Below are positions 11,850-48,176 of a stretch of 64,000 bases of DNA, piece after piece. Position numbers and translations under genes: made by a program. How positions within the stretch are numbered: position 1 is the stretch's first letter; the number at the start of each line of letters is the position of its first letter. The stretch is from contig CAKQRB010000036.1 of assembly GCA_934271195.1 (NCBI GenBank), forward strand, positions 8,171 to 72,170. Direction: 5' to 3'. This DNA comes from an uncultured Alphaproteobacteria bacterium (GTDB lineage Bacteria; Pseudomonadota; Alphaproteobacteria; RF32; CAG-239). The notes beneath the pieces were generated by a model. It was not told the DNA's origin. It was given only the letters and a program-made list of their open reading frames with translations, and searched no databases.

Positions 11850-11866
11850 TGTTTTTCTCCTCATCC

Positions 11867-18500: not shown

Positions 18501-18722
18501 AAGACAACAGTTTTAGTCAGACTGCGCAACAAGTTTTTGCCTTATTTTGAAAATACCAAATACTATAGCCCATTTAGCATATTAACCGGCAATCTGGAAA
18601 ATGATAAAATCGACCTGAAAGCCATCAGTCAAACAATCAATGACGTTCAGGCATTCAGTAATTTTACCAAATTGTATAACGATTCGCTCAAAAACGACCA
18701 TTTAGACACCCAAAATAAATGA
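15588..18722 (+). CDS. Large periplasmic protein (1044 aa) with a beta-rich N-terminal half and a TPR-like helical C-terminal half
   Basis: The signal peptide is [15 protein letters not shown]|QN. The C-terminal ~550 aa are helical-repeat-like (for example [45 protein letters not shown]). It is co-directional with and packed against fliL-fliM-motE-like. Confidence 0.6.
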
Positions 18723-33868: not shown

Positions 33869-33971
33869 GTCCGTTTTCTCCTTTTAAAGCGTAAAAATCT
33901 TTCTGATAAGACAATTTTAATTATCTTATTCTAACATGCAAGTATTAATAAAACTTTTAAGGCCGAGTAAG

Positions 33972-34373
33972 ATGACACAAACAGAAAAACTCTTTGCCGC
34001 GGCATGCAATATCCGACGGCGCGCTTATGCCCCCTATTCAAACTTTGACGTCGGCGCCGCCGTCCTCGGCAGGAATGGCAAAATTTATGCCGGCGCCAAT
34101 GTTGAAAACATCTCCTATCCCTGCGGCACCTGCGCCGAACAGGCCGCCATTGCCCAAATGATTGGGGACGGTTGCCGCGAGATTGCCGAAATTCTGATTA
34201 TTGCCGACACCGCCGAACCGATAACGCCCTGCGGTGCCTGCCTGCAACGCATAAAAGAATTTGCCAGACCGCAAACCGTTGTTCACCTGGCTAACCTGAA
34301 CGGCATTGTCAGCAGCTTGAATTTTAATGATTTTTTGCCTCTGGCCTTTAACAATAAGGAAGTAAAAAAATGA
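33972..34373 (+). CDS. cdd: Cytidine deaminase
   Basis: I place the start at MTQTEK. The zinc ligand motifs CAEQAAI and PCGACLQ are present. The size fits a homotetrameric-type enzyme. Confidence 0.9.
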   Translation: MTQTEKLFAAACNIRRRAYAPYSNFDVGAAVLGRNGKIYAGANVENISYPCGTCAEQAAIAQMIGDGCREIAEILIIADTAEPITPCGACLQRIKEFARPQTVVHLANLNGIVSSLNFNDFLPLAFNNKEVKK

Positions 34374-35179
34374 TAAAAAACATTGCCGGCCAAATCCGCC
34401 AAAAAATTTTAGGTCACAACCCGCAAACAGCCATTATTCTCGGCAGCGGGCTGGGCAGTCTCGGTGACGCCGTCTGCAATCCGGTTTACGTTGAATACAA
34501 AGACATTGTCGGCTTTCCGCAAAGTACCGTCAGCGGCCATCAGGGACGTCTGATTGCCGGCACCTTGGAAGGTACGGAAGTTTTATGCCTGCAGGGACGT
34601 TTTCACTTATATGAGGGACATCGGCCGCAGGTCATCAATACCGTTATCAAAACATTGCAAGAAATCGGTATCAGACGCCTGATTGTCACCAATGCTGCCG
34701 GTTCGCTGACACCTGATTTTCAACCCGGAACAATTATGCTGATAAAAGACCACATCAATCTGAGCGGAACCAATCCGCTGATCGGACCGAACGATGACAC
34801 TTACGGTCCGCGTTTTCCCGACATGAGCAATGCCTATACCGCCGCGCTGCGCACTAAAATGAAGCAAATCGCCCAAGAACAAAAAATCCCGTTAGCCGAA
34901 GGCGTATATATGATGGTAACCGGCCCCAATTTTGAAACCGCCGCCGAAATCCGCGCCTTTCGTATTCTCGGTGCCGATGCGATTGGCATGTCGACTGTAC
35001 CGGAAGTTATCTGTGCTGTCCACTCCGGCATGGAAATTCTGGGCTTGTCCGTCTTAACCAATATGGGTACCGGATTGCGGATCGGCAGCCAGAGTCATAC
35101 CGAAACGCTGGCTCAGGGAGAAAAGGCTTCCGCTGACCTGCAAAAACTGGTCAAAGCTTTTTTAAGACAGGAGAAATAA
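34370..35179 (+). CDS. punA: Purine nucleoside phosphorylase (trimeric PNP family)
   Basis: The 269-aa ORF contains GSGLG, HQGRLIAG, GRFHLYEG and MSTVPEV motifs. It overlaps cdd as ATGA. Confidence 0.9.
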   Translation: MIKNIAGQIRQKILGHNPQTAIILGSGLGSLGDAVCNPVYVEYKDIVGFPQSTVSGHQGRLIAGTLEGTEVLCLQGRFHLYEGHRPQVINTVIKTLQEIGIRRLIVTNAAGSLTPDFQPGTIMLIKDHINLSGTNPLIGPNDDTYGPRFPDMSNAYTAALRTKMKQIAQEQKIPLAEGVYMMVTGPNFETAAEIRAFRILGADAIGMSTVPEVICAVHSGMEILGLSVLTNMGTGLRIGSQSHTETLAQGEKASADLQKLVKAFLRQEK

Positions 35180-35180
35180 T

Positions 35181-35918
35181 ATGGATGACATAACCGCCGC
35201 CGAAACGTTAATCCAATGTCTGGATCTGACCTCGCTCAACAACACGGATACCTCAGAAAACATTATTGACCTTTGCCGCAAAGCCCAAACGCCTTACGGC
35301 AACGTCGCCGCTGTCTGTGTTTATCCGCAGTTTGTCGGCACCGCCAAAGAACACCTGCGCCACACCAATATCAGAGTTGCAACCGTCATCAATTTTCCCG
35401 ACGGCAGCCTTGAGCTGGAAAGAACCAGAAGTGCCATAACCACCGCCGTTGTCAAAGGCGCCGATGAGATTGACCTCGTCTTTCCGTATAAACAATTCTT
35501 GGAAGGCCAAAAAAATGAATGCGGCCTTTTTATTAAACATGTCAAAGAACATCTCGGCAAAAAAATCCTTCTCAAAGTGATTCTTGAAACCGGCGAACTG
35601 ATACACGCCGCCACCATCGCAGAAGCCACAAAATTGTGCATTCAAAACGGGGCGGATTTCATCAAAACCTCTACCGGCAAGACTAAAGTTTCTGCCACGC
35701 CGGAAGCCGCCAACATCATCTTGGAAACCATTGCTTCCGGCCGCAAAAATGCCGGTTTCAAAGCCAGCGGCGGCATAAAAACCATTGACGATGCAAAAAA
35801 ATATCTGGTTCTGGCTGTTGCTGTTATGGGCGGGAAATGGGTCACGCCCAAAAATTTTCGTATCGGCGCCAGTTCTCTGCTGGATAATCTGATAGAAGTC
35901 ATTAATCGGGGATATTAA
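35181..35918 (+). CDS. deoC: Deoxyribose-phosphate aldolase
   Basis: The 245-aa ORF has the Schiff-base lysine context FIKTSTGK and the KVILETGEL motif. Confidence 0.9.
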   Translation: MDDITAAETLIQCLDLTSLNNTDTSENIIDLCRKAQTPYGNVAAVCVYPQFVGTAKEHLRHTNIRVATVINFPDGSLELERTRSAITTAVVKGADEIDLVFPYKQFLEGQKNECGLFIKHVKEHLGKKILLKVILETGELIHAATIAEATKLCIQNGADFIKTSTGKTKVSATPEAANIILETIASGRKNAGFKASGGIKTIDDAKKYLVLAVAVMGGKWVTPKNFRIGASSLLDNLIEVINRGY

Positions 35919-35919
35919 A

Positions 35920-37227
35920 ATGCTGCCACAAGAAATCATTCGCAAAAAACGCAACCGCCAAACTTTAACACCGGAAGAAATCAGTTTTTTCATCAAAGGC
36001 GTCACATCTGGAGAAATTGCCGATTGCCAAACTGCGGCATTAACCATGGCCATATTTCTCAATGGTCTTTCTAAAGAAGAAATCACGTTATTAACGTTAA
36101 ATATGCGCGATTCCGGCAATGTCTTAAGCTGGGATTTAAACGGTCCGGTCGTGGACAAACATTCTTCCGGCGGTGTCGGAGATAAAGTCAGCCTGATGCT
36201 GGCGCCGCTGATTGCGGCTTGCGGCGGTTATGTTCCGATGATCTCCGGCCGCGGCCTCGGCCATACCGGCGGCACACTCGACAAATTCGATTCCATTCCG
36301 GGATATAAGACCATTCCCGACAATGATCTGTTCAAAAAAACTGTCAGAAGAGTCGGCTGTGCCATAATCGGACAGACCGGTAATCTGGCACCGGCTGATA
36401 AAAAAATATACGCTATTCGCGACGTCTGCGGCACGGTTGAATCCATTCCTCTGATTACCGCCTCGATTCTTTCCAAAAAACTTGCCGCCGGACTGGAATA
36501 TCTGGTCATGGATTTAAAATGCGGCAACGGGGCTTTCATGCCCTCGCTTGAAGACGGCAGAAATCTAGCGCGTTCTATTGTTGATGTCGCCAACCATGCC
36601 GGCACCAAAACTTCTGCCCTGCTGACGGATATGAACCAAGTTCTCGGCCACACCGTCGGCAATGCTTTGGAAATGGCCGAAGCCATAGAATACCTGCAAG
36701 GCAAAAACATTGATTCGCGGCTGCACCAAATAACCATGGACCTATGCGCCGAACTTCTGACAAATGCCGGACTGACTGTCAGTACGGAAGAAGCCCGCGC
36801 CAAACTGGAAAAAGCCATCTCTTCAGGCAAAGCCTTGGAAATATTCGCCCGCATGGTCACGGCATTGGGCGGACCGGCAGATTTTGTAGAAAAGTATCAA
36901 ACCTATCTGCCGCAAGCGGCAATTATAAGGCCGGTATTTTCTCCGGTATCAGGATATATCCGCAGCATGAACACCCGCAATATCGGCTTGAGCATTATTG
37001 AATTAAAAGGCGGACGCGCTCATCCTGATCAAAAACTGGATTATGCCACCGGTTTCAGCGCCTTTTGCCAAATCGGAGATTATATCGATGCTCAAAAGCC
37101 GCTAGCCTTCATCCATGCTCAAACTGAAGATCAGTTCAACCATGCACGGCAAGAATTGCTGAACAATATCCAAATCGGAGAAAATGCACCGGCAATAACC
37201 GATCCGGTCATTGAAAAAATATCTTAA
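35920..37227 (+). CDS. deoA: Thymidine phosphorylase
   Basis: The 435-aa ORF contains DKHSSGGVGDK and SGRGLGHTGGTLDK motifs. Confidence 0.93.
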   Translation: MLPQEIIRKKRNRQTLTPEEISFFIKGVTSGEIADCQTAALTMAIFLNGLSKEEITLLTLNMRDSGNVLSWDLNGPVVDKHSSGGVGDKVSLMLAPLIAACGGYVPMISGRGLGHTGGTLDKFDSIPGYKTIPDNDLFKKTVRRVGCAIIGQTGNLAPADKKIYAIRDVCGTVESIPLITASILSKKLAAGLEYLVMDLKCGNGAFMPSLEDGRNLARSIVDVANHAGTKTSALLTDMNQVLGHTVGNALEMAEAIEYLQGKNIDSRLHQITMDLCAELLTNAGLTVSTEEARAKLEKAISSGKALEIFARMVTALGGPADFVEKYQTYLPQAAIIRPVFSPVSGYIRSMNTRNIGLSIIELKGGRAHPDQKLDYATGFSAFCQIGDYIDAQKPLAFIHAQTEDQFNHARQELLNNIQIGENAPAITDPVIEKIS

Positions 37228-37231
37228 CCAT

Positions 37232-37267
37232 AAAAAAAAACCGGAGATTAAAACTCCGGTTTTTTTA
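37232..37267. terminator. Bidirectional intrinsic terminator between deoA and the 1110-aa gene
   Basis: A 9-A run is followed by the stem CCGGAG / CTCCGG (37241-46 / 37254-59) and then an 8-T run. Confidence 0.75.
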
Positions 37268-37277
37268 TGCCACTGTC

Positions 37278-40200
37278 TTAAGCACTATACCCGCCCCCTC
37301 GCGGATCAATATCTCTATTAGGCAATGGTGGTGTCTTAAGAGTATTCTGTGCCATGTTCGGTTCATTAGACACTGATTTTGCCGCCGTGGCTTCTTCCAC
37401 GCTTTTACCCTGTCTGAGCGCTTCCAACTTTTCAGCCCTTGAAAGTTCCTGCGGCTGCTGTTCCGCGGCCTTGTCCCCATGAACCATCGTTTGCAGCTCT
37501 TCATTCAGCTTCTCAACATCGGGTTTGCCGGCAGCCGGCTGAGTTTCTGCCACAGATTGCTCGGCTGTATGCGCATCTTGCGGATTTCCGAAAGTTTTTT
37601 CAGCCTCCTGAGCAAACAGCTGAGCATCTTGCTCTCCCCTTATCTGCGCATCGGCCAACATCACATCACTGTATTGTTCACTCGATAAATTCTTCTCAAG
37701 AAAAGCTAGTTCCCTGTCGCTGAAATGACCGGCTTCCTGACCAATCCGCACGGCAATGGCTTCATGAAGCTGCTCGCTTCCCAGCAGTCCGATTTCCTCG
37801 GCATTATGGGTCTGGATTTCCCCATTGTCACCCAGAGAAAACTCTACCGTCTTTCCGCTGACCGGATCCTGCACGCCGTATATTTTGTTTGCCTCTGCCT
37901 GAGCCTGCATTTGCTCGTTAACGCCGGCAATATCCGGTTGCTCGGTTTCGAGGCCGGCAATTGCACCGGCTTCCAGCGGCGTAGCAGTCAAATCCGGACG
38001 TTCAGTTTCCTGCTGAACAACAGACTCTTGCGACGGAGTTTCCTGCGCCTGAGGCTCCTGTACCGGAGCTTCCTGCTCAACCGCCGGTTTTTCAGGCTCA
38101 TTCGCCCAGCCCTCTCCGCCGTCACGGTCTATATAATCGGAAATGCCGTCATTATTCTTGTCCAACATCGGCGGCGTCTGCTGCTCGGTCGGCCGTTCAA
38201 TATAATCAGAAATACCGTTGTTATTTTCATCAACCATTGCCGGCGCTTCCGAAACCGTACTGTCAACCGTTGTCGTAGCTTCATGTGAAGTCTGTCCGGC
38301 AATCACGGCCCAAGCCGTACCGGCACCGGCAATACCGGCCGCCCCCATCGCTTTCCACACACTGCCTCCGGCTTTTCGTACTTCTCTGAAAGCTTTGATG
38401 GTTGAACCGACACCCAATGCAATCCCTGACGTTGCTTTAGCATTTGTCAAAGATTTTACAACCTCCGGCGCCAAATCAACTGCTGCCATACCGGCCGTGG
38501 CTGCACCGAGAGCTGTCATTGCCGCGCCGGCCAGAGCCATTTTATTGTTTTTTAAGAAAGACCAGAGCTTGAGCTTTTTGCCCTTTTTGGCCATTTCTTC
38601 TTTTTGTTTCTTATATTCCTTGCGCAGCTTCAAAGCCTGATTCGCCAAAGATGCCGTTGCCACAACCGCTACACCGGCCGGACCGAATGCGGCGCCGGCA
38701 GCATAATACGCTCCTGACCATGCCGCAGTCTTGGCCAAAGATTTAAGCATTGCATACTGCTTAGGCGCTGCATTTTTAGCTGTCTTGTCATCTAGATTCT
38801 TACCTTGTTCCCGTAATTTTGCAACACCAGCATTGCCTTTTCCGACCTTGCTCTCCAGACGGGCGGCAAAACCCTCGCGCGCTTCGCTCTGTGCCGCCAA
38901 ATACCCTAACAATGCCCCTTTTCCAACCTGAATCTTGTGACCTTTGGCATAATCATCAATAGCTTTGCTGCCGCCGGCAACCACGCTCTCGACACCTGCC
39001 AGTCTGCTGACTTCCGCCACAATATTCGCGGCAAATTCTTTATTAAATTCTGCCGGTTCAATCGGCCCCGGTTTGGTACCGGCCATGCTTTCCATCGTCT
39101 GCAGACGGATACTCTCCAGCAGCTGAGCCTTTAATTCGTCATTATCCTTGCTCTTAGCCTTGCCGGTCATCTTAACGCCGTCCGTAATCTCCAGATTGTC
39201 AAACAGCGCCATGGCATCAGCCATTTCCGGATGCTTCGGCTTCGGATTCGTCTGAGCCTCTTTCCGATTCTTGTCTAAAATACCCTTGGCTTTCTCATAC
39301 TTCTTGGCCGGAAACATTGACTCCGACAGGTGCGAAGCCTTCTCCAGCAGAAAATCCATGCTGCTCAGTTCATCGGCGGGGACTTCCTTGCCGACCTTTG
39401 TCAGCTTAGCGGCAATCGCCTTTTCCAACGCCTCAGCATCTGGCCCCATTGTGCCAAAAGCATTGGAAGCCGACAAAGACGCCAGCGTTTTCATATCAAA
39501 ATCTTTACCCTGTCGCAACTCGGCCATTGCTTTCTCAGCTTCGTCTTTCGACATCGGTTTGACCGGTTCTTCTTTATATTCCGCCTTGTCAAGAGCATCT
39601 TTGCCCATTTCGCTCATGGCGGCAATATTCTCCGAAACCCGCTCTGCGTCTTCCGAAGTCATCATCGCCAATCCATGCTCTTTATCATAAGTCTCGGTAA
39701 ACTCTTTCAGCTTTCCCTCACAGGCTTCGGCCAGTTCGGTAATTCGCGGCTCATCAAAAGTCCCGTTGACAACCTTGCGGGAGTCATACAGTTTACCCTC
39801 TACTTTGGTAAAAATTTCAAAAGCCTTGCCTGCACTTTCCCTACGGTTTGACATCGGAATGGCGTCAAGCAAAACCTGCGCTGCAGCCAAATCCTCTTTT
39901 TTGATAAAATCATTCTTGCCCATGGCGGCAATATCATTCAGCCTGCGCCCGACAGCCTCGTCAACGCGCTGCTTGTCAAAACCTTCCGGATTCTTGTCCA
40001 TTTCGACTTTTAGCGCTGCCAAATCATGCAGGCTCAGTTCGCTCAAATCTTTGTCTTTATCTTTAGAAATATTCTGCGCCGTCACCGTATGCATGCCGGT
40101 AATCGGTTCTTCCTGATAAGGCTCTTTTTCCGGCAGACGCTCTTTGGCAGCCCGCAACATGGCCTGCATACCGCCGGCCCATTCTATCGGCGTTTCAATC

Positions 40201-40610
40201 TCGCCGTTGGCATAGGCCTGCATTTTTTCTTCCATGGCCAGCCGGACTTTGCCATAGCCGAGTACAGCATCTTCATTGCCTTCAGCTGCCGCTGTCCGCA
40301 ACACATTGTTCATTTCGGCTAAATCATTCGGATTCAAATTGTACAATTCTTTGCCGTCAGCCGCCTTAATCGCATCTTCAAGCTTCATCGGCTCTTTTTG
40401 CTCAACAACGGCCGCTTCCTGCTCCGGCTCTTTGAACTTGTCGGCATGAGCCTGAGCTTCCGTAGTTTGGGGAGCATAAACATCGCTGAGAACAGCTTTT
40501 TGTTCTCCGTCAAGGGAATCCCAGGTTGCACCTTCCGGCAAAGGCTTGCCGGTTTCATTCTCATAATAGTCCCGCTGTTCCTGAGTCAATACATTAGATT
40601 CATCAGCCAT
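37278..40610 (-). CDS. Giant hypothetical protein P1 (1110 aa), paralog of the next gene
   Basis: This is one long uninterrupted ORF with a GGAG RBS and no Sec signal. It has a helical N-terminal ~620 aa and central Gly/Ala-rich hydrophobic hairpins (AAWSGAYYAAGAAFGPAGVAVVATASLA, MALAGAAMTALGAATAGMAAV, AMGAAGIAGAGTAWAVIAG). These are followed by two DxNxDGISDYI motifs and an acidic Pro/Gln-rich tail. Confidence 0.7.
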   Translation of the reverse strand: MADESNVLTQEQRDYYENETGKPLPEGATWDSLDGEQKAVLSDVYAPQTTEAQAHADKFKEPEQEAAVVEQKEPMKLEDAIKAADGKELYNLNPNDLAEMNNVLRTAAAEGNEDAVLGYGKVRLAMEEKMQAYANGEIETPIEWAGGMQAMLRAAKERLPEKEPYQEEPITGMHTVTAQNISKDKDKDLSELSLHDLAALKVEMDKNPEGFDKQRVDEAVGRRLNDIAAMGKNDFIKKEDLAAAQVLLDAIPMSNRRESAGKAFEIFTKVEGKLYDSRKVVNGTFDEPRITELAEACEGKLKEFTETYDKEHGLAMMTSEDAERVSENIAAMSEMGKDALDKAEYKEEPVKPMSKDEAEKAMAELRQGKDFDMKTLASLSASNAFGTMGPDAEALEKAIAAKLTKVGKEVPADELSSMDFLLEKASHLSESMFPAKKYEKAKGILDKNRKEAQTNPKPKHPEMADAMALFDNLEITDGVKMTGKAKSKDNDELKAQLLESIRLQTMESMAGTKPGPIEPAEFNKEFAANIVAEVSRLAGVESVVAGGSKAIDDYAKGHKIQVGKGALLGYLAAQSEAREGFAARLESKVGKGNAGVAKLREQGKNLDDKTAKNAAPKQYAMLKSLAKTAAWSGAYYAAGAAFGPAGVAVVATASLANQALKLRKEYKKQKEEMAKKGKKLKLWSFLKNNKMALAGAAMTALGAATAGMAAVDLAPEVVKSLTNAKATSGIALGVGSTIKAFREVRKAGGSVWKAMGAAGIAGAGTAWAVIAGQTSHEATTTVDSTVSEAPAMVDENNNGISDYIERPTEQQTPPMLDKNNDGISDYIDRDGGEGWANEPEKPAVEQEAPVQEPQAQETPSQESVVQQETERPDLTATPLEAGAIAGLETEQPDIAGVNEQMQAQAEANKIYGVQDPVSGKTVEFSLGDNGEIQTHNAEEIGLLGSEQLHEAIAVRIGQEAGHFSDRELAFLEKNLSSEQYSDVMLADAQIRGEQDAQLFAQEAEKTFGNPQDAHTAEQSVAETQPAAGKPDVEKLNEELQTMVHGDKAAEQQPQELSRAEKLEALRQGKSVEEATAAKSVSNEPNMAQNTLKTPPLPNRDIDPRGGGYSA

Positions 40611-40646
40611 GGTTCTTACTCCAAAATATTTAACTTAATATAATTT

Positions 40647-40675
40647 ATTGTACCAAAATCATTTCTTTTGTACAA
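40647..40675 (-). promoter_or_regulatory. Candidate sigma-70 promoter for P1
   Basis: On the minus strand the sequence reads TTGTAC-N17-TACAAT, about 35 nt upstream of the GGAG RBS and ATG of P1. Confidence 0.4.
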
Positions 40676-40771
40676 TATTTTTTGTCAACAAAAAGACGCT
40701 ATTAACAGTAATGTAACATTTATCTCAAGCATAACGGTAAAATTTAAATTATTCATTAAAAACCTGACATC

Positions 40772-40803
40772 AAAAAAAGAGCCGCAAATTTCTCCGCAGC
40801 TCT
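40772..40803 (-). terminator. Intrinsic terminator downstream of P2
   Basis: The stem AGAGCCGC / GCAGCTCT has one mismatch. On the minus strand it is followed by a 7-T run. It lies about 30 nt past the P2 stop. Confidence 0.55.
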
Positions 40804-40833
40804 TTCTCTTTTTGTTAGGAATTTTTAAGATGA

Positions 40834-43710
40834 TTAATAATCCCAACTGTTACTTTTAGCCTTCATTTTAGCCATTTTTGCAGCTTCTTTCTCAGCCTTT
40901 GCCGCCTCTTTGGCAGCTTCTTTTTCGGCTTTTGCGGCTTCTTTGGCAGCCTGCTTCTCAGCTTTTTCCGTTTCTTTTTCAAGCTGACGCATTTCTTTGT
41001 CTGTCATCAGGCCGTCCGGATCTTTGCGATAAGCTTCCAGTAACAGTTCACGGTCAACATTCTGGTTAATGGCAATATAACCTTTGTCATCAATAAACAG
41101 ACCGCGTTTGGCCAGATGCTTGTCCATCCAATCCATCCATTCCTCAGCGCCTTTAATAGTTTCGCCTTCGGACAGACGATTATGCAGGTCATAATAAACC
41201 TCGCTGTAAGCCGCATAACGGCGGGACATTGTTTCCGGCTTGTCGGTAAAGCCTTCCAAATGGGCAGCCACTTCATCGGCATATTTGTCTTCCGGCATTT
41301 CATACTGAATTTGTGCCGCACCGTTATAGAAGCTATACTCAACCTTACCGCCGTTAGCCATTGCAATTTTTCCGGCGACGGCATCTGCCTCAATTATCGG
41401 ATTAGGCTCGCCTTTGTTGCCGTCAACGTCATAATCATAACCCTGAGCGGCTTCTTTCTCAGGAATAGGCGCATCATAAAAGTCATAATCATAACCTTTG
41501 ATTTTATCCTGAGAAACATTGTCAAGCGTAACATGTTCCACAATCTTGCCCTTATAAATCTTGGCCGGATCTGTTTCTTGTGCAGGCTCTACAGGTTGAA
41601 CAGGCTCTACAGGCTCAGGTTCAACAGGTTCTGCCGGCTCTGGATTAACAGGCGCATTATCAACCGGCTCCGGCTGTGTCGGTTCCGGATTGCAGCGGGC
41701 AAAATCGTCAGCCAATCTGACACCGCCGGTATTTTGCGTATTTTCCCAGCACAGCGGATTACCGTGATTGTCATAAGAATTCATACCGCGGGCAATATCA
41801 ATATAATCATTTTGTGTCAACTGGCCGCCGCAGGCTTTCTCAATCATGTCGACCAAAACTCTCTGTTCGGGAATATTATTGGCCTTCATAATGGCATATT
41901 TATAAACAAATTCTTCTTTGTTATCAATACCTTCAAAGTCACCCAGATTCAAAACCGGCTTATCACCTTCAAACAAGCCGTACAAAGCATTGGTTAAATC
42001 ATCGCCGAGGAAGTGACGGTTACGATTGTCCCAAAACTCTGTATGCAGGGTATGATCTCTGGCCTGAGCCTCAATCTTGCCGTTGCAGTCGCCGTCGTCG
42101 ATATTCTGTTCTGCACTCTGCTGCTGATTGCCACGCAAAGCATTTTCAATCTCCTCACACGGATCCTGTTCCGTACCGGCTGTTGTCGTTGTATCCGCAC
42201 CGTCGGAAACTTGTGTGGAACCTTCTGCCGCGCTGCTTTGAGCGGCTGGATCGACTTTGGCCTCGTTCAAATCTCTGCCATCCGGCAAAGTCAGGCCGCT
42301 TTTCTCGGAAACATCAGAATCCGACCGAACGGCTCCGGACATCACATGATAGTTCACGACAAATGCCAGCGCCGTCAAACCGGCTTTTAGCCATGCCTGT
42401 TTTTGGCCTTCGCCTTTATTATAGGCATCTTTGATATCCACGGCATTCTTCAGAGCAACCGTACCATAAGCAAGCGTTGCACGCGTTTTGCTGGCATATC
42501 CGATCAGCGAATTGACCGTTGTCGAATTCAACTGTCCGCCGGCAGCCTGCAAAGCGGCATTTCCGGCATTATAACCGGCCACGCCCAAAGCCAGAACACC
42601 GGAAACCGCGGTCAAAGCATTCAGCTTGTTGTCTTTCAGAAAAGCGCCGAATGTCTTATACTCTTTCCGGCTGTTTTTCCAAGACTGAACCATCGGTTTC
42701 ATACCGTTATAAGAAGCATACACACCATATGCAGCCAGACCGGCCGGCCCGAGGGCACCGGCAGCCAGCAGCATTCCGGTACTTGCGCCGATATTGGATA
42801 CAACCTTAATCGCCGTTTTGGCAGCGTTATAACGCTTACCGTATTTTTTGGACCATTTGTCATCCAGCTGCGAAATTTTCTTGTTCAGTTTGGCCAATAC
42901 AGGAATATTGCCCAGTTTGGTTTTAATGCGATCTTTAATGCTTTCAGTTCTGTCCAGCGTTGTCGCCAGATAACCCATAACAGCATCGCCGTTAACTTTA
43001 AGCGTGCTGTTTTCTTTATCCGTAACGGCAATAGCCTGATCCAAAGTTGCCTTAATTGACATGTCCAAAGACTTGTTGGCTTCTGCGCCGGCTTTTGAAA
43101 TGGCAGTACCGGTCAGCATACTGTAAACGGCCAGCTCAATATTGCTCTTCAAATTCTCGACATATTTGGCCTCGTCAAGTTTTCCGTCAACCAAACTGTC
43201 CGTATAAGCATTCAGTCTGACGGCCTCCAAAACATCTGTCTTTGTATCTTGGTCAAGATCCATTCTGTCAAGAAGCTTCCGCCCGTTTGACTCAAATTTG
43301 CTGTCTGCAATATCATGCTTTTGCTCAAATTCTTCAAGCTTGGCGGCATTGGTTTTAATCGTCTCGGCATCAACGTTAACGTCATTAAGCTTTTTATAAA
43401 CATCAAAAGCTTCCTGCGCGGTCTTGCCGCTGGTCATGCCTTTAATAGCCTCACCGTCCGCATCTTTGCCGTAAATTTTAATCAGCTCCTCAAAAACATC
43501 CATATCTTTGGGATTGAGTTGATAAATACCTTCGGCAAACTGCGCCATCATATTTGTTCCGACAAAATCCTTCAATTTGGCAAAAGCTTCGACACCTTCT
43601 TTTCCTGCTGCCGGCAAAGTTTTAGCCAAATTAACCAAATCATCGTTGGAAAAGGCTTCAAACTCCCCGTCGTTAATCATCTGAATTGCATTTTGAGCAT
43701 CTATAGCCAT
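40834..43710 (-). CDS. Giant hypothetical protein P2 (~958 aa), paralog of P1
   Basis: I place the start at the ATG after TAGGAG (MAIDAQNAIQ). It shares sequence blocks with P1 (see findings). The central hydrophobic hairpins include IGASTGMLLAAGALGPAGLAAYGVYASY. It also has a Cys-containing middle domain, a PEPV-type proline repeat and an AKEAAKAEKE tail repeat. Confidence 0.7.
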   Translation of the reverse strand: MAIDAQNAIQMINDGEFEAFSNDDLVNLAKTLPAAGKEGVEAFAKLKDFVGTNMMAQFAEGIYQLNPKDMDVFEELIKIYGKDADGEAIKGMTSGKTAQEAFDVYKKLNDVNVDAETIKTNAAKLEEFEQKHDIADSKFESNGRKLLDRMDLDQDTKTDVLEAVRLNAYTDSLVDGKLDEAKYVENLKSNIELAVYSMLTGTAISKAGAEANKSLDMSIKATLDQAIAVTDKENSTLKVNGDAVMGYLATTLDRTESIKDRIKTKLGNIPVLAKLNKKISQLDDKWSKKYGKRYNAAKTAIKVVSNIGASTGMLLAAGALGPAGLAAYGVYASYNGMKPMVQSWKNSRKEYKTFGAFLKDNKLNALTAVSGVLALGVAGYNAGNAALQAAGGQLNSTTVNSLIGYASKTRATLAYGTVALKNAVDIKDAYNKGEGQKQAWLKAGLTALAFVVNYHVMSGAVRSDSDVSEKSGLTLPDGRDLNEAKVDPAAQSSAAEGSTQVSDGADTTTTAGTEQDPCEEIENALRGNQQQSAEQNIDDGDCNGKIEAQARDHTLHTEFWDNRNRHFLGDDLTNALYGLFEGDKPVLNLGDFEGIDNKEEFVYKYAIMKANNIPEQRVLVDMIEKACGGQLTQNDYIDIARGMNSYDNHGNPLCWENTQNTGGVRLADDFARCNPEPTQPEPVDNAPVNPEPAEPVEPEPVEPVQPVEPAQETDPAKIYKGKIVEHVTLDNVSQDKIKGYDYDFYDAPIPEKEAAQGYDYDVDGNKGEPNPIIEADAVAGKIAMANGGKVEYSFYNGAAQIQYEMPEDKYADEVAAHLEGFTDKPETMSRRYAAYSEVYYDLHNRLSEGETIKGAEEWMDWMDKHLAKRGLFIDDKGYIAINQNVDRELLLEAYRKDPDGLMTDKEMRQLEKETEKAEKQAAKEAAKAEKEAAKEAAKAEKEAAKMAKMKAKSNSWDY
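40881..40975 (-). repeat. Roughly 2.8 copies of a 33-bp in-frame tandem repeat at the 3' end of P2
   Basis: Plus-strand units are GCAGCTTCTTTCTCAGCCTTTGCCGCCTCTTTG, GCAGCTTCTTTTTCGGCTTTTGCGGCTTCTTTG and GCAGCCTGCTTCTCAGC... These encode (AKEAAKAEKEA)n. Confidence 0.7.
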
Positions 43711-43758
43711 TTTAAAAACTCCTAACAAAATTCTACTTGACGCGATAATAACGCATTT

Positions 43759-43787
43759 TTTAGAATATTTCAACAACTTTTTGTCAA
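43759..43787 (-). promoter_or_regulatory. Candidate sigma-70 promoter for P2
   Basis: On the minus strand the sequence reads TTGACA-N17-TCTAAA, about 50 nt upstream of the P2 start. Confidence 0.35.
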
Positions 43788-43918
43788 ATCAATCTAAAAA
43801 AATACGTTTTCGGTCAAAAATTTCTCTAATTAATTAAAATTATAACCGAATTTAATTAAAATATCTTTTATCTATATGGTTTTCTGCGGTTTTCAGGAAT
43901 CGAATCGGCATTTTTTCA

Positions 43919-43954
43919 CAAAAAAATCCCTGAACACCATGCTCAGGGATTTTT
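43919..43954. terminator. Intrinsic terminator downstream of the S66 peptidase gene (bidirectional geometry)
   Basis: The stem ATCCCTGA / TCAGGGAT has a 9-nt loop, an A-run on one side and TTTT on the other. It starts 4 nt past the stop at 43958. Confidence 0.7.
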
Positions 43955-43957
43955 ACT

Positions 43958-44953
43958 TCAGGCTTTTACCATTAACTGCATCAACTCCGCATCCATACGG
44001 CATTCTCCGCCAATCGGCAACGTTAAAAGCGGCGTAGTATGGCCAAAATCAACATTGGCAATAACCGGCAGCCGATTCAGTGCTTTTTTGCTTTTTATAA
44101 TATACTCAAGCTTTTCTTTTGTCACATTGGAGGCCTTTTGAAAACGTCCGATAACAATCCCGCTCACGTTTTCAAAATCCGGCTGATAAATCAGCGCCTG
44201 CAGATGCCGCTCAAAATCGCCGGCATCCGTCGCCTCGCTGGTAAAACATTCTTCAACAAACAAAACGGTATTTTTCTCAAATGCCGGCCGATAAGAAGAC
44301 CCGAGCAGCAAATCAAACGTCCCCAGATTGCCGCCGACAATCGTTCCTTCGGCTTTTCCGGCATTAATCACATGCCAGCCGTCGTTCTTAATAAAATGGC
44401 GCTCTTCCTGATTGATAAACCACAGATCATCACTCCAGAAGTCTGATGGCTTAACCTCGTTTTCCTGACTGCCAAAAATCATTTTTTTCAAATTTTCCAG
44501 CATATATTCGGCTCCTTTTTTCATCCCCAGCGAGCTGAAATGCGGACCTGAAAAAGTCACCAACCCCGTCTTGGCATAAATGCCGTTTAACAACGCCGTA
44601 ATATCGGAAAAGCCGCAAAAGATTTTCGGATTTTGCCGGATAAGCTCATAATCCAAATACGGCAGAAGCTGATTCGAATTGCTTCCGCCAATCACCGTAA
44701 ATACGGCCTTCACGTTTTTATCTCCGAAAGCCTCGTTCAAATCATCGGCCCGCTTTTCCACATCTGCGGAACCAAACATATCCCAGTTTTCATCTGTGGT
44801 ATTTTTGCCAAAAGTTACCTTCAGCCCCATTTCTTCAAACCGAGCCTTAGCAAGCTCGCGGCTGTCCTGTCCAATCAGTCTCAGCCCTCTGGCCGGCGCC
44901 ACAATCCGGACCTCATCACCTGCTTTCAACACCTGCGGTACAATCTTTTTCAT
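43958..44953 (-). CDS. S66-family LD-carboxypeptidase (LdcA/MccF-like)
   Basis: The 331-aa ORF has the nucleophile context GFSDITAL and the His context DFGHTTP, with an N-terminal VRIVAPA strand. Confidence 0.85.
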   Translation of the reverse strand: MKKIVPQVLKAGDEVRIVAPARGLRLIGQDSRELAKARFEEMGLKVTFGKNTTDENWDMFGSADVEKRADDLNEAFGDKNVKAVFTVIGGSNSNQLLPYLDYELIRQNPKIFCGFSDITALLNGIYAKTGLVTFSGPHFSSLGMKKGAEYMLENLKKMIFGSQENEVKPSDFWSDDLWFINQEERHFIKNDGWHVINAGKAEGTIVGGNLGTFDLLLGSSYRPAFEKNTVLFVEECFTSEATDAGDFERHLQALIYQPDFENVSGIVIGRFQKASNVTKEKLEYIIKSKKALNRLPVIANVDFGHTTPLLTLPIGGECRMDAELMQLMVKA

Positions 44954-45013
44954 TTTTCCTCCTTACTGAAAATCTTTTGACCTGATTTTATTACAGCTTA
45001 ATCAAAATTTCTA

Positions 45014-45042
45014 TTGCATTTAAGTTTATTCGTAATTATTAT
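45014..45042 (+). promoter_or_regulatory. Candidate sigma-70 promoter of umuDC
   Basis: TTGCAT (45014-19) -N17- TATTAT (45037-42). The SOS box begins 3 nt downstream of the -10 element. Confidence 0.45.
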
Positions 45043-45044
45043 AA

Positions 45045-45059
45045 GAACAAAACAAGAAC
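45045..45059 (+). promoter_or_regulatory. Alphaproteobacterial-type LexA operator (SOS box)
   Basis: GAAC AAAACAA GAAC is an exact GAAC-N7-GAAC direct repeat, the complement of GTTC-N7-GTTC. It lies 17 nt upstream of the umuD ATG. Confidence 0.65.
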
Positions 45060-45076
45060 ATAACAATGAGAATACC

Positions 45077-45445
45077 ATGCCTGCTTTTCATTCCTCTCAT
45101 GATGGCACTTTTGACTTTTCGGAAAACGTCTACACCTCCCCGTTGGATATAAACCGCCATTTAATCTCTCATCCGGCCGCCACCTATTTTTTGCGTATGG
45201 AAAGCGATTCTCTCAGACAGGACGGTATTCTCCGCAACGATACGCTGGTCGTTGACCGTACACTGCCGCCGACCTCCGGCAGCCTGATTGTGGCAGAGCT
45301 CAACGGCGAACTTCTTGCTCGTCGTTTGCAAATATTCTCCGGTCGGACAACCCTGTTGTGTTCCGACGGCGCCGCCCGCACGATTTCCGCTTCTGACACT
45401 TTTTCGGTCTGGGGCGTTATAACCGCAAGTTTCAGAAAGTACTGA
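45077..45445 (+). CDS. umuD: UmuD-like S24 peptidase-family protein (Pol V accessory subunit homolog)
   Basis: The protein is 122 aa from the ATG at 45077. It aligns by eye to E. coli UmuD (HPAATYFLRMESDSL / HPSATYFVKASGDSM; VVDRTL / IVDSAI; GELLARRLQI / GEFTVKKLQL). Confidence 0.8.
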   Translation: MPAFHSSHDGTFDFSENVYTSPLDINRHLISHPAATYFLRMESDSLRQDGILRNDTLVVDRTLPPTSGSLIVAELNGELLARRLQIFSGRTTLLCSDGAARTISASDTFSVWGVITASFRKY

Positions 45446-45446
45446 C

Positions 45447-46697
45447 ATGTTTTTCCTGTTTGACTGCGACAACTTTTTTGTTTCCTGCGAAAGAATATTC
45501 CGTCCGGATTTGAAAAAACGTCCGGTTATCGTTCTGTCCAGTAATGACGGCTGCGTGGTTTCCCGCTCTTATGAAGCCAAAGCCCTGCCGATAGCCATGG
45601 GAACACCTTACTTCAAAATTGAAAAAATGTTCCGTGCCGCCGGCGGCGTTGCGCTGTCTTCAAATTTTGAGCTCTATTCGGACATCTCGCGCCGCGTTAT
45701 GAATCTGATACGTCAGAGCTGCGACACCATACAAGTCTATTCTATCGACGAAGCCTTTGCCCGCCTTCCCGATACCGGCATAAACAATTTTCAACAGGCC
45801 GCAAACATCAGACACCGGATTCTAAAAGAAATCGGCATCCCTGTTTCAATCGGCATTGCTCCGACCAAAACCCTTTGCAAAATCGCGTCTTCTTTAGCCA
45901 AAAGCAAAGCCTTTAACAAAGTGGAAATTTTAACAGATCCGCAAAGGATCCGCCAGACGCTGAATAATTTTGAAGTCAAAAATATCTGGGGCATCGGCAG
46001 CCGCCTGACACCGAAACTCAATTTTCTGGGCATATTTACCGCGCTTGAGCTCCAAAATTCACCGCTGAAAATGATTCGCAGGAACTTTGGCATTCCGCTG
46101 GAAAAAACCGTTATGGAACTGAACGGCCACCCTTGTCTGGATATCAAGCGGGAAGAAACGGCGCAAAGTATAACCGTCTCCCGCAGCTTTGAACACGAAA
46201 TCTCAAACTTCGAACAGCTCGAAGCTATCATTACCGGCTTTACCGACACAGCCTGCCGCCGGCTGCGTGCCCAAAATGCCGCCGCCAAAGAAATTGCCGT
46301 TTTTTTGAAAACAAATCGCTTCAAAAATCAAAGAGAAAGCGGTGGCTCTTATCTTGTTTCGCTCGGCGGCCCCTGTATCCATACCGGACGTTTTATTGCC
46401 GCCATGAAATACGGGCTAGAGCAAATATTCTCGCCGCAGGAAGCCTACAAATCAGCAGGCATAACCCTACTGGCAATAGAAAATGCCGACACTCTCCAAA
46501 CCTCTTTGTTTGAAAAATCCGCTTTGCCGCCGAAAGAACAAAAACTCATGCAGGCATTCGACAGCCTAAACGCCAAACTCGGTACCCATAGTGTTTTCTT
46601 TGCCGCTCAGGCATTGGCTCCGCAAAAATTTGTCCGCAGCAATTTCCATTCTCCGGCTTACACAACCTCATGGCAGTCACTGGCCAGCGTACACTGA
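45447..46697 (+). CDS. umuC: Y-family DNA polymerase V catalytic subunit
   Basis: The 416-aa ORF starts FFLFDCDNFFVSCERIFRPDL ... PVIVLSSNDGCVVSRS, typical of UmuC. It starts 2 nt after the umuD stop. Confidence 0.9.
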   Translation: MFFLFDCDNFFVSCERIFRPDLKKRPVIVLSSNDGCVVSRSYEAKALPIAMGTPYFKIEKMFRAAGGVALSSNFELYSDISRRVMNLIRQSCDTIQVYSIDEAFARLPDTGINNFQQAANIRHRILKEIGIPVSIGIAPTKTLCKIASSLAKSKAFNKVEILTDPQRIRQTLNNFEVKNIWGIGSRLTPKLNFLGIFTALELQNSPLKMIRRNFGIPLEKTVMELNGHPCLDIKREETAQSITVSRSFEHEISNFEQLEAIITGFTDTACRRLRAQNAAAKEIAVFLKTNRFKNQRESGGSYLVSLGGPCIHTGRFIAAMKYGLEQIFSPQEAYKSAGITLLAIENADTLQTSLFEKSALPPKEQKLMQAFDSLNAKLGTHSVFFAAQALAPQKFVRSNFHSPAYTTSWQSLASVH

Positions 46698-46859
46698 AAT
46701 CAGCGGCAATTTGGCATATTCTGTATTTTCCACTACATTTCCCTCTGAAAAGTTGTCCTGCTCCGACTTATATAAAGCACGTAAACCGCTTTTCAAGTTT
46801 TACCAAATATAAAGGATTAAATGCTACATTTCAGACAATCTGATTTAAGGAGAAAAAAC

Positions 46860-48176
46860 ATGAATTTGGACATTTTGCTGGCGATTGCCGGACTGTTGTT
46901 GATGCTTTGCGTTTTTGCCAACAAAATTTCCGACAAATACGGCATCCCTGCCCTTTTGATTTTTCTGGGGCTCGGCATGCTTGCCGGCTCGGAAGGTGTC
47001 GGCCGTATCGAATTTCACAATGCCCGCCTGACCAATGTCATCGGCACCATCGCCCTGGCCTTTATTCTGTTTTCCGGCGGCTTGGACACCAACTGGCAAA
47101 ACGTCAAAAGCATTACCAAACGCGGCAGCGTTCTGTCCACTGCCGGCGTCTTACTGACCGCCGTTTTTCTCTTTTTGTTCAGCCACGACATTTTGGGACT
47201 GTCCGTTGAAATCTCCATGCTTCTCAGCGTCATTGTATCATCAACCGATGCTCCGGCTGTATTCTCCATTCTGCGGTCACATAATTTAAACGTCCAGCCT
47301 CGCCTGAAAGCCTTGCTGGAATTTGAATCCGGCAGTAACGATCCGATGGCCGTGTTCCTGTCAATGAGTGCCATCGCTTTCATTTCACAAGCCGATTTTG
47401 ACCTCCTCAGTCTGCTTCGGAGTTTCTTCCTGCAAATGTCGCTCGGCATTATTTTGGGACTGACTTTCGGCTTCGGCGCCTGCCGTCTTCTGTCGCAGTT
47501 CAGCCTGCCGTATAAAGGCTTGTACCCTGTTTACGGCGTCGGCGTGGTGTTGCTGAGTTACAGTTTAACCCAGCTTGCCGGCGGCAACGGATTCTTGGCC
47601 GTCTATCTGTCAGGCATTGTCATGGGCAACACCAGCTACCTATACCGCCGCCATATCATCCGCTTTCAGGATTCTCTGGCTTGGATTATGCAAATCAGCA
47701 TGTTCCTGATTCTGGGCTTGTTAGTCAATCCCAATGAGCTTTTTCAGGTCATGCCCGTCAGCTTTGCCTGCACAATCTTTTTGATTTTCATTGCCCGCCC
47801 GCTGGCTGTATGGCTTTGCTTGCTGCGCAGTGACTTCAGCCTTAAAGAACAGATATTTATCGGCTGGGCCGGCTTTAAAGGCGCTGTCCCGATTATTCTG
47901 GCGACCTATCCGCTCATTCGTGGTTTCCCAAATTCTCAATTTCTGTTCAACCTGATTTTCTTTATGGTCATCATCTCCGTGTTGTTTCAGGGCAAAACCC
48001 TTGCGCCGCTGGCTCGCTTGCTCCGTTTAAGTACAGAAAAACCCTTAAATCCTGATTATATTAGTGAAAATGAAGAAGAAGACGATGATGATGAAGAGAG
48101 AGAAGAAAACTTCTCCCGCTTATCATTCCGCAAACTGTTCAGAAAACTGCTGCATAAAGAACCCAAAGAAGAATGA
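46860..48176 (+). CDS. CPA1-family K+/H+ antiporter, NhaP2/CvrA-like, with no recognisable C-terminal regulatory domain
   Basis: The ATG at 46860 follows AAGGAG. The N-terminus reads MNLDILLAIAGLLLMLCVFANKISDKYGIPALLIFLGLGMLAGSEG. About 12 TM segments are followed by only a short acidic tail (ENEEEDDDDEEREE). Confidence 0.8.
   Translation: MNLDILLAIAGLLLMLCVFANKISDKYGIPALLIFLGLGMLAGSEGVGRIEFHNARLTNVIGTIALAFILFSGGLDTNWQNVKSITKRGSVLSTAGVLLTAVFLFLFSHDILGLSVEISMLLSVIVSSTDAPAVFSILRSHNLNVQPRLKALLEFESGSNDPMAVFLSMSAIAFISQADFDLLSLLRSFFLQMSLGIILGLTFGFGACRLLSQFSLPYKGLYPVYGVGVVLLSYSLTQLAGGNGFLAVYLSGIVMGNTSYLYRRHIIRFQDSLAWIMQISMFLILGLLVNPNELFQVMPVSFACTIFLIFIARPLAVWLCLLRSDFSLKEQIFIGWAGFKGAVPIILATYPLIRGFPNSQFLFNLIFFMVIISVLFQGKTLAPLARLLRLSTEKPLNPDYISENEEEDDDDEEREENFSRLSFRKLFRKLLHKEPKEE

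Follow-up and report, generated by a model that had tools for sequence, protein, structure and literature searches.

What do two adjacent giant genes of no recognisable family do among the housekeeping genes of a gut alphaproteobacterium? The question is raised by a stretch of 64,000 nucleotides, called the window here (contig CAKQRB010000036.1 of GenBank assembly GCA_934271195.1, positions 8,171 to 72,170 of the forward strand, from an uncultured Alphaproteobacteria bacterium), in which the two genes, P1 and P2, lie side by side on the minus strand. The original prediction, made from the letters of the DNA, regarded them as tandem paralogs and as candidates for a membrane-inserting or secreted effector pair, by analogy with inclusion-membrane (Inc) and translocator proteins. 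Our analysis leads to a different view. P1 and P2 share a central core with a family of undescribed proteins, within which they appear to represent different old subfamilies, and the reading that we prefer, at somewhat less than even confidence, is that they are resident modular scaffolds anchored in the membrane.

37278 to 40610, minus strand: P1 gene, 1110 amino acids, stop codon included in the span (from the list of open reading frames)
40834 to 43710, minus strand: P2 gene, 958 amino acids, stop codon included in the span (from the list of open reading frames, the Shine-Dalgarno sequence and the orthologs)

The list of open reading frames indeed contains the two adjacent giant genes. The open frame of P2 extends to 43776 (40834 to 43776, minus strand), and we place its true start at the ATG at 43710, because AGGAG stands 8 nucleotides upstream of it and because all orthologs begin with MAIDA; the P1 start, an ATG at 40610, is preceded by GGAG. 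Both N-termini are acidic and have no hydrophobic h-region, therefore neither protein carries a Sec signal, as had been claimed.

Does any described family contain these proteins? A Pfam scan of P1 and P2 returned zero families at E<=1, NCBIfam returned AuxB alone (E 0.52, 9 bits against a 300-bit cut-off), and PHROGs and PADLOC gave no match. Sequence and profile searches of PDB with the full proteins and with the core, FW domain, C-domain and N-domain described below all stayed at E>=0.1. Foldseek against PDB with both AlphaFold2 models gave best E values of 0.09-0.6 and nothing at E<=1e-3, and against BFVD the P2 model had no match at E<=1e-3. Judging by these searches, no described family includes P1 or P2, and on this point the original prediction stands. 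A search of the literature on this bacterial clade yielded community surveys only.

A family of their own does exist. A full HMMER scan with a P2-family profile across 1.84 billion representatives found 65 representative proteins at E<=1e-3 (34 at E<=1e-10), 62 to 1689 amino acids long and mostly of about 700-1700, and a hidden Markov model (HMM) of the core region matches all 65. No consistent Pfam domain was found among the 52 distant relatives scanned; one distant member matches Pfam Excalibur at E 0.006. A word-indexed search places orthologs of P1 in 14 clusters (53-100% identity, full length throughout) and those of P2 in 19. The sole source name among the relatives is 'hypothetical protein [Alphaproteobacteria bacterium]'. 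Six genome loci (L001-L006) are gut metagenome-assembled genomes (MAGs) from deer, human, mouse and other samples, four of them labelled Alphaproteobacteria and two proteobacterium. All provenance clues thus place this undescribed family in uncultured gut and rumen Alphaproteobacteria.

How closely are P1 and P2 related to each other? The two stretches that matter most here are the following.

38250 to 39158, minus strand: family core of P1, residues 485-787 (BLASTP and hhalign against P2; core HMM; hydropathy and charge)
42295 to 43269, minus strand: family core of P2, residues 148-472 (BLASTP and hhalign against P1; core HMM; hydropathy and charge)

BLASTP of P1 against P2 gives one significant high-scoring segment pair (P1 492-793 with P2 155-474, 25% identity, E 2e-12), and a comparison of both ortholog alignments by hhalign matches P1 558-761 with P2 235-446 (probability 95.8%, E 7.5e-9) and no other stretch. 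The central blocks that had been picked out by eye (GALLGYLAAQ, AAGAAFGPAG, RKEYKK..FLKNNK) all fall inside this region. Under proper pairwise statistics the claimed paralogy therefore holds for the core of about 300 amino acids, as far as these alignments go, and does not hold along the full length. Outside the core the picture is mixed. The N-terminal block proposed earlier (LYNLNPNDL.. / IYQLNPKDM..) was in the wrong register and reaches only E 0.91 alone; nevertheless an N-terminal domain is probably common to both proteins, since hhalign with the family N-domain profile A9 aligns P1 76-153 with P2 2-76 (probability 82%, E 1e-5), and there ELYNLNPNDLAEMNNVL of P1 pairs with EFEAFSNDDLVNLAKTL of P2, not with IYQLNPKDMDVFEELI. 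Homology at the C-terminal block is weakly supported, by a C-domain profile that was built without P1-type sequences and aligns to P1 905-983 (probability 45%, E 2e-4). Profile comparison found no counterpart in P1 of the best-conserved domain of P2 (536-675), and none in P2 of the DxDxDG loops, the internal repeat of about 100 amino acids and the tail of P1. Hence the claim of a common domain order is correct in outline: the layout appears comparable (N-domain, core, acidic Pro-rich linker, C-domain), with accessory modules that differ.

The term 'tandem paralogs' is misleading for another reason. In a neighbour-joining tree of the core P1 groups with P0078, P0088, P0090 and P0091, and P2 with P0037 and P0038. 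The tree indicates that the two are members of different old subfamilies, which rules out a recent tandem duplication.

The surroundings of the pair are chromosomal housekeeping genes. The P1 end of the pair faces the convergent PNP-deoC-deoA, past which lies a giant gene of the AsmA family; beyond P2 come genes for an S66 LD-carboxypeptidase, for umuDC, for a Na/H exchanger and for L17/rpoA, so that the deo and S66-umuDC flanks had been recognised correctly. All six MAG species have one and the same gene order, AsmA / PNP-deoC-deoA / P1 / P2 / S66 / umuDC / Na/H exchanger. Towards L004-L006, which are the most distant three, identity is 66-81% for P1, 62-63% for P2 and 69-87% for the neighbours. 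Against three close species the ratio of nonsynonymous to synonymous substitution rates (dN/dS) is 0.08-0.13 for P1, 0.12-0.14 for P2 and 0.03-0.12 for the neighbours. P1 and P2 are under purifying selection similar to that on their housekeeping neighbours. By module, dN/dS falls to 0.02 in the FW domain and 0.00-0.07 in the C-domain, with relaxed values of 0.2-0.45 in the linkers.

The locus of a more distant relative, L010 (1-21557, equivalent to 29636-48176 of the window), has a single P2-type gene in the slot between the Na/H exchanger and deoA, has cdd inside the deo operon, and is without the S66 peptidase and umuDC. S66-umuDC and P1 were therefore either added later or lost in the L010 lineage. 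Other members of the family sit downstream of tyrS-AnmK-ileS, upstream of alr-TatD-ThiF-HydF, beside accB and elsewhere, and in L009 and L015 there are two further tandem pairs whose members come from different subfamilies. We inspected 11 loci with distinct contexts, and in none of them is a family gene accompanied by one for secretion, a chaperone, immunity or phage functions. Likewise no gene for an ABC transporter, membrane-fusion protein or acyltransferase is found near the pair or at 10 other loci, as far as linked genes are concerned, and no ExbB/D or TolQ/R gene at the inspected family loci. Flagellar genes do exist in these genomes (fliM in the window, flgE in L007); at the inspected loci, to which this observation is limited, the only type III genes encountered are flagellar, and no non-flagellar system was seen.

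What, then, is conserved in the core? Both proteins are strongly acidic (net charge about -57 for P1 and -47 for P2), with the sole exception of a basic island which holds the hydrophobic segments. The Gly/Ala-rich hydrophobic segments noticed at the outset are thus real and lie within the homologous block. In P1 the uncharged Gly/Ala-rich segments are 633-657, 691-714 and 754-772, with an invariant Lys-rich loop at 658-690; in P2 the uncharged segments are 303-332 (with a central GP), 362-383 and 443-461. The order is the same family-wide: a basic stretch (..KKYGK.Y..AK..), segment 1 centred on AG..GP.G, a basic loop ending in F..Y.K.NK, segment 2, a stretch rich in Gly, Ala, Ser and Thr with an amphipathic piece, segment 3, and finally an acidic region. 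Nearly all members have flanks whose net charges are, in succession, positive, positive (+2 to +12), zero-to-positive and negative. Throughout the family, whose proteins are otherwise strongly acidic, the three segments keep runs of 21-33 residues without charge.

Around the core, local iterative searches find a fixed order of modules: N-domain, core, one to three DxDxDG loops, in many cases with GGxGWAN behind them, then the FW domain, Pro/Glu-rich or coiled-coil-like spacers, one or two C-domains and a short tail. Each member carries a variable subset of the post-core modules, in the same order where they are present. In P1 and P2 the modules are as follows (pLDDT being the confidence score of the AlphaFold2 model).

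40152 to 40385, minus strand: P1 N-domain, residues 76-153, with the pattern ..EA..LI..G....LS.EEL.. (hhalign, profile A9)
39276 to 40130, minus strand: P1 internal repeat, copies 161-245 and 341-445, with the stretch between them (jackhmmer, alignment A1)
38091 to 38240, minus strand: P1 DxDxDG pair, residues 791-840, DENNNGISDYIE and DKNNDGISDYID, then RDGGEGWAN (sequence)
37911 to 38102, minus strand: P1 acidic Pro/Glu/Gln-rich linker, residues 837-900 (composition; pLDDT below 50; dN/dS 0.22)
37656 to 37910, minus strand: P1 C-terminal beta-hairpin and helix domain, residues 901-985 (pLDDT 65-84; jackhmmer)
37281 to 37475, minus strand: P1 tail, residues 1046-1110, ending in ..DPRGGGYSA (conserved in alignment A1)
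43372 to 43710, minus strand: P2 N-domain, residues 1-113 (jackhmmer; pLDDT about 60-80)
41686 to 42105, minus strand: P2 all-alpha FW domain, residues 536-675, ..FWDNRNRHFLG..EEFVYKYA..NSYDNHGNPLCW.. (alignment A2)
41566 to 41685, minus strand: P2 Pro/Glu-rich (EP/VEP) linker, residues 676-715, PEPTQPEPVDNAPVNPEPAEPVEPEPVEPVQPVEP (sequence, composition)
41011 to 41400, minus strand: P2 C-terminal alpha/beta domain, residues 771-900 (pLDDT 78-89; jackhmmer; dN/dS 0.03-0.07)

Several of these modules recur widely. A jackhmmer profile ties P2 4-113 to 11 other representatives; the DxDxDG module recurs in 15 others (for example DRDNDGIPDTIDRDGGAGWAN), the P1 domain 901-985 in 13, and the P2-type C-domain in 26, in one or two copies each. 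The FW domain is present in 33 other representatives and has no relative that we could find in PDB; it is the most constrained part of P2, nearly invariant in alignment A2. The two copies of the P1 repeat are both matched by one jackhmmer profile (4.7e-32 and 1.6e-49). Both DxDxDG loops of P1 fit D-x-[DN]-x-[DN]-G-x-x-D-x-x-[DE], a likeness to calcium loops at the level of the pattern only, and the Pfam TSP_3 and EF-hand models do not match P1. The acidic Pro-rich low complexity described earlier is present by composition in the linkers, where Pro rises to 11-12 per 100 residues, and P1 837-875 resembles P2 676-715. P1 has a single Cys. P2 has five, all after the core (518-673): four are inside the FW domain and C518 is just upstream of it. 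C542, at the start of the FW domain, and C654, in PLCW, co-occur or are jointly absent across the clades that have this domain. Mean pLDDT is 63 in the AlphaFold2 model of P1 and 54 in that of P2. Confidence is good (about 75-89) in the helical N-terminal regions and in the C-domains, and low in the FW region of P2, in the linkers and in the hydrophobic part of the core. A MgtE_N/FliG-like N-domain was considered and not accepted, the matches being just E 1.3 against PDB MgtE and two borderline ones in Pfam.

The C-termini of the family are Gly/Arg-rich and mildly basic (..GGR, ..KGR, ..RGKDY, ..GYSR, ..RGGGYSA; in P1 residues 1099-1110, at 37281-37316). Of 57 representatives, 86% have a net positive charge over their last 20 residues. 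The mean charge of the tail is +1.5, the C-terminal regions are otherwise acidic, and in the last 8 residues Gly is enriched 2.5-fold and Arg 4-fold. Such a tail might serve for export, for the binding of a partner or as a site of processing.

With this material at hand we return to the question of what the proteins might do. We favour resident scaffolds because the pair is conserved like housekeeping genes, has no export context, and has basic flanks around a core of small-residue helices. In such a scaffold the basic core of about 300 residues, with its three Gly/Ala-rich segments, would hold the protein at the cytoplasmic membrane, with segment 1 perhaps kinked at its central AG..GP.G. Helices made of small residues would favour tight helix-helix packing, so that homo-oligomers, or hetero-oligomers of P1 with P2, may form. 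The large acidic modular arms would project from the membrane, the helical N-domain (and the repeats in P1) upstream of the core and the post-core modules downstream of it.

Is the core really a membrane anchor? We did not accept hydropathy as proof of transmembrane helices after calibrating it on the transporters and soluble proteins of the window, and several observations weigh against the anchor. The core segments have Kyte-Doolittle 19-residue means of 1.3-1.5 and crude Hessa sums of +2.6 to +5.3, while helices of transporters in the same window mostly have 1.7-2.4 and -0.3 to +3, and the most hydrophobic stretches of some soluble proteins there reach 1.45-1.8. The hydrophobic part of the core has a pLDDT below 50. 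The Lys-rich loop between segments 1 and 2 breaks the positive-inside rule for a simple three-pass protein with the N-terminus in and the C-terminus out, and some paralogs carry C-terminal coiled-coil-like stretches which appear too long for the periplasm. Because the hydropathy of the segments lies between that of transporter helices and that of soluble proteins, insertion into the membrane is plausible, not established.

As to topology, one possible arrangement has the N-terminus inside and the C-terminal arm outside. The charge of the flanks suggests this, being basic before segment 1 and between the segments and acidic after segment 3; and so do the DxDxDG loops, the post-core position of the Cys residues of P2, the two Cys that are kept or missing together and the EP spacers reminiscent of TonB, all of which would suit an arm outside the cytoplasm. 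Monotopic hairpins with both arms in the cytoplasm would be fitted equally well by the uniformly basic loops, and the long coiled-coil-like C-terminal regions of some paralogs are also consistent with that arrangement.

Are there known proteins of this kind? TonB and TolA, which span the envelope (and similarly the bitopic RodZ- and ZipA-like scaffolds), combine an anchor, a Pro/Glu spacer and a small C-terminal globular domain, as P1 and P2 may do. The Pro-rich character of the periplasmic spacer is found in P2 676-715 and P1 837-875, within the wider P1 spacer of 837-900, and P2 has a TolA-like helical tail rich in Lys, Ala and Glu (905-950). However, no TonB_C, TolA or RodZ model of Pfam matches, nor does any fold; the anchor of TonB and TolA is a single N-terminal helix, whereas that of P1 and P2 would be a central core of three segments after an arm of 150-630 residues, and no ExbBD or TolQR partner genes are adjacent to the pair. 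HubP and FimV are likewise very acidic, modular proteins of about 1000 residues, rich in repeats and linkers, with a short hydrophobic tether and module-shuffled paralogs, but P1 and P2 have neither a LysM domain nor the FimV C-terminal motif (by Pfam), and there is no homology. The core itself may be likened to glycine-zipper hairpins. In Mic10 and ATP synthase subunit c, Gly/Ala-rich helices joined by a short basic loop pack tightly and oligomerise. This comparison suggests a mode of self-association; these are small proteins unrelated in sequence, and the likeness is compositional only.

One may go further and imagine a new kind of module in the membrane, made of a kinked Gly/Ala-zipper hairpin and two small-residue helices in the basic frame of the core, which oligomerises and bears exchangeable acidic arms. 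The Gly/Arg tail would then be an export or partner signal, pairs from different subfamilies such as P1 and P2 would form hetero-oligomers, and the many paralogs together would build an envelope or surface apparatus specific to gut Alphaproteobacteria. We consider this extended scenario a speculation which, taken as a whole, is rather improbable.

Let us consider the effector idea in the form in which it survives best. P1 and P2 would be soluble in the producing cell, would be exported by a type I, IV, VI or flagellar type III route with the Gly/Arg tail as a signal, and would insert into a membrane elsewhere. Many exported pore-formers and translocators indeed have segments that are only marginally hydrophobic, as here; the proteins are highly acidic, P1 has its single Cys and its calcium-loop motifs, the basic tail is net positive in most representatives, and flagellar genes are present in these genomes. 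Chlamydial Inc proteins offer further parallels: they have no Sec signal, they carry closely spaced hydrophobic segments in a large hydrophilic protein, and they are lineage-restricted, fast-diverging and without Pfam domains. Nevertheless, neither sequence nor fold relates the two groups. The comparison with the bilobed Inc domain, in which a short loop separates two transmembrane segments, is less clear-cut: P1 and P2 have three segments, with loops of about 30-40 residues and marginal hydropathy, and segment 1 with its central GP could itself be a hairpin. Their hydrophobic block is central, after 300-630 residues, and lies in a basic island. They also differ from Inc proteins in their housekeeping context, in belonging to bacteria with flagellar genes and in being under purifying selection. 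RTX substrates of type I secretion are comparable in being acidic and Cys-poor (as P1 is), with Ala/Gly-rich hydrophobic helices, downstream calcium motifs and a distinct tail, but the GGxGxD nonapeptide repeats are missing (Pfam HemolysinCabind does not match), P1 has just its two DxDxDG loops, the pair has no ABC transporter, membrane-fusion protein or acyltransferase gene nearby, and P2 has five conserved Cys.

Taken together, we think that export is unlikely. None of the 11 distinct contexts has an adjacent secretion-system, chaperone or immunity gene, the synteny is strict in six species, and dN/dS (0.08-0.14) is on a par with that of the housekeeping neighbours. Every hydrophobic segment has basic flanks, throughout the family, as would be expected of proteins that insert themselves into the membrane of their own cell from the cytoplasm. 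No Inc, translocator or toxin family matches, and the mean charge of the tail is only +1.5.

Could the proteins instead be entirely soluble? In that case they would be helical scaffolds of the cytoplasm, the Gly/Ala segments would lie as helices in the interior of a bundle, and the basic core would have an anionic partner, such as nucleic acid, another polyanion or the protein's own acidic arms. The overlap in hydropathy with soluble proteins of the same window agrees with this, all loops are basic so that no crossing of a membrane would be needed, the AlphaFold models are all-helical, and some paralogs have long arms, acidic and of low complexity or coiled-coil, that resemble cytoplasmic scaffolds. 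Against it, soluble proteins do not usually keep uncharged runs of 21-33 residues through some 65 divergent representatives, AlphaFold packs the segments without confidence, and the DxDxDG loops and clade-correlated Cys pairs would fit better outside the cytoplasm. Hence we regard this possibility too as doubtful.

Finally, a domesticated tape-measure-like protein of a phage, or a protein of another mobile element, is very improbable and close to refuted: the pair shares with tape measures a long, mostly helical build and central Gly/Ala-rich hydrophobic stretches, and the weak top BFVD matches include tape-measure and minor tail proteins (E about 0.1, probability <=0.16), but there is no PHROG match, no relative of the core profile in 2.9 million viral contigs, none of P2 in plasmids or of P1 in phage genome records (tblastn), no tail-module context or phage gene at any inspected locus, and the pair is syntenic in the core genome.

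How are the two genes expressed? The claim that each has its own promoter and terminator is supported by promoter-like and terminator-like elements that are conserved in the six species, with compensatory changes in the stems.

40647 to 40688, minus strand: P1 promoter-like region, TTGACAAAAA and then TTGTAC-17-TGgTACAAT (scan, sequence)
43745 to 43787, minus strand: P2 promoter-like region, TTGACAAAAA and then TTGAAA-17-TATTAT (scan, sequence)
40771 to 40810, minus strand: terminator-like hairpin and T run directly after the P2 stop codon (sequence)
43919 to 43950, minus strand: terminator-like hairpin and T run downstream of the S66 peptidase gene and before P2 (sequence)
37234 to 37266, minus strand: terminator-like hairpin after P1, common with the convergent deoA, with a 13-bp stem and a T run

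Since each gene has such a conserved promoter-like region and a terminator-like hairpin, the DNA supports two separate, possibly co-regulated, transcription units. The stem after P2 is retained through compensatory changes in L001-L003, L005 and L006, and the stem after the S66 gene has compensatory changes in L004-L006. A near-invariant stretch of about 100 nucleotides for P1 and about 170 for P2 is seen upstream in the six species, and TTGACAAAAA, which stands just upstream of both sets of sigma-70-like hexamers, has three occurrences in the window for an expectation of 0.6; this common element looks like an operator or activator site. The upstream regions (40647-40740 and 43745-43900, minus strand) are near-invariant although the proteins of the six species are only 62-90% identical. 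That of P1 also contains a GTTAC-N6-GTTAA direct repeat and an ATTGTAC/GTACAAT inverted repeat. A CtrA box was considered for these regions and rejected, TTAA-N7-TTAA being absent from them. The hairpin at 37234-37266 is strong, is bordered by an A run and, at its other end, by a T run, and could terminate both deoA and P1.

Some observations concern the neighbours. The AsmA-family protein (1410 amino acids, 29636-33868 of the window, minus strand) adjoins the deo operon, and its position is kept throughout the related loci. Flagellar switch genes lie farther off in the window (fliM at 13346-14428). Three further large open reading frames have no Pfam match: 2387-4102 (minus strand, 571 amino acids), 9000-11864 (minus strand, 954) and 15588-18722 (plus strand, 1044), the last of which comes after the fliM/fliN-like cluster and abuts uvrB; none of the three contains the core or modules of P1 and P2. 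In L008, L009 and L014 family members adjoin a conserved alr-TatD-ThiF-HydF block, and L009 has a radical-SAM/BATS gene as well. HydF and the radical-SAM/BATS gene suggest maturation of an [FeFe]-hydrogenase; if so, these bacteria would live anaerobically. Genes connected with peptidoglycan (S66, AnmK, alr) are met repeatedly in the vicinity of family members, which may be coincidence.

What does the finding mean? Orphan giant proteins are common in MAGs, and an architecture of anchor, spacer and terminal domain, as proposed here, is of a familiar kind, in a family that is itself undescribed. In our opinion this family is above the ordinary in size, strictness of conservation and modular grammar, and its members are under purifying selection wherever this was measured; our interest in it is nevertheless moderate, since it offers no functional handle. 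It is a well-delimited orphan family with a testable architecture, and no new mechanism is demonstrated. Almost nothing is known of the cell biology of the uncultured Alphaproteobacteria in the guts of human, mouse and ruminants, and about 65 clusters with the same core, in comparable contexts and without a detectable relative, represent a sizeable blind spot. Should the core prove to be a module for membrane anchoring or oligomerisation, the bacterial envelope would gain a new building block; should the proteins be exported, we would be dealing with a new class of host- or competitor-directed factors.

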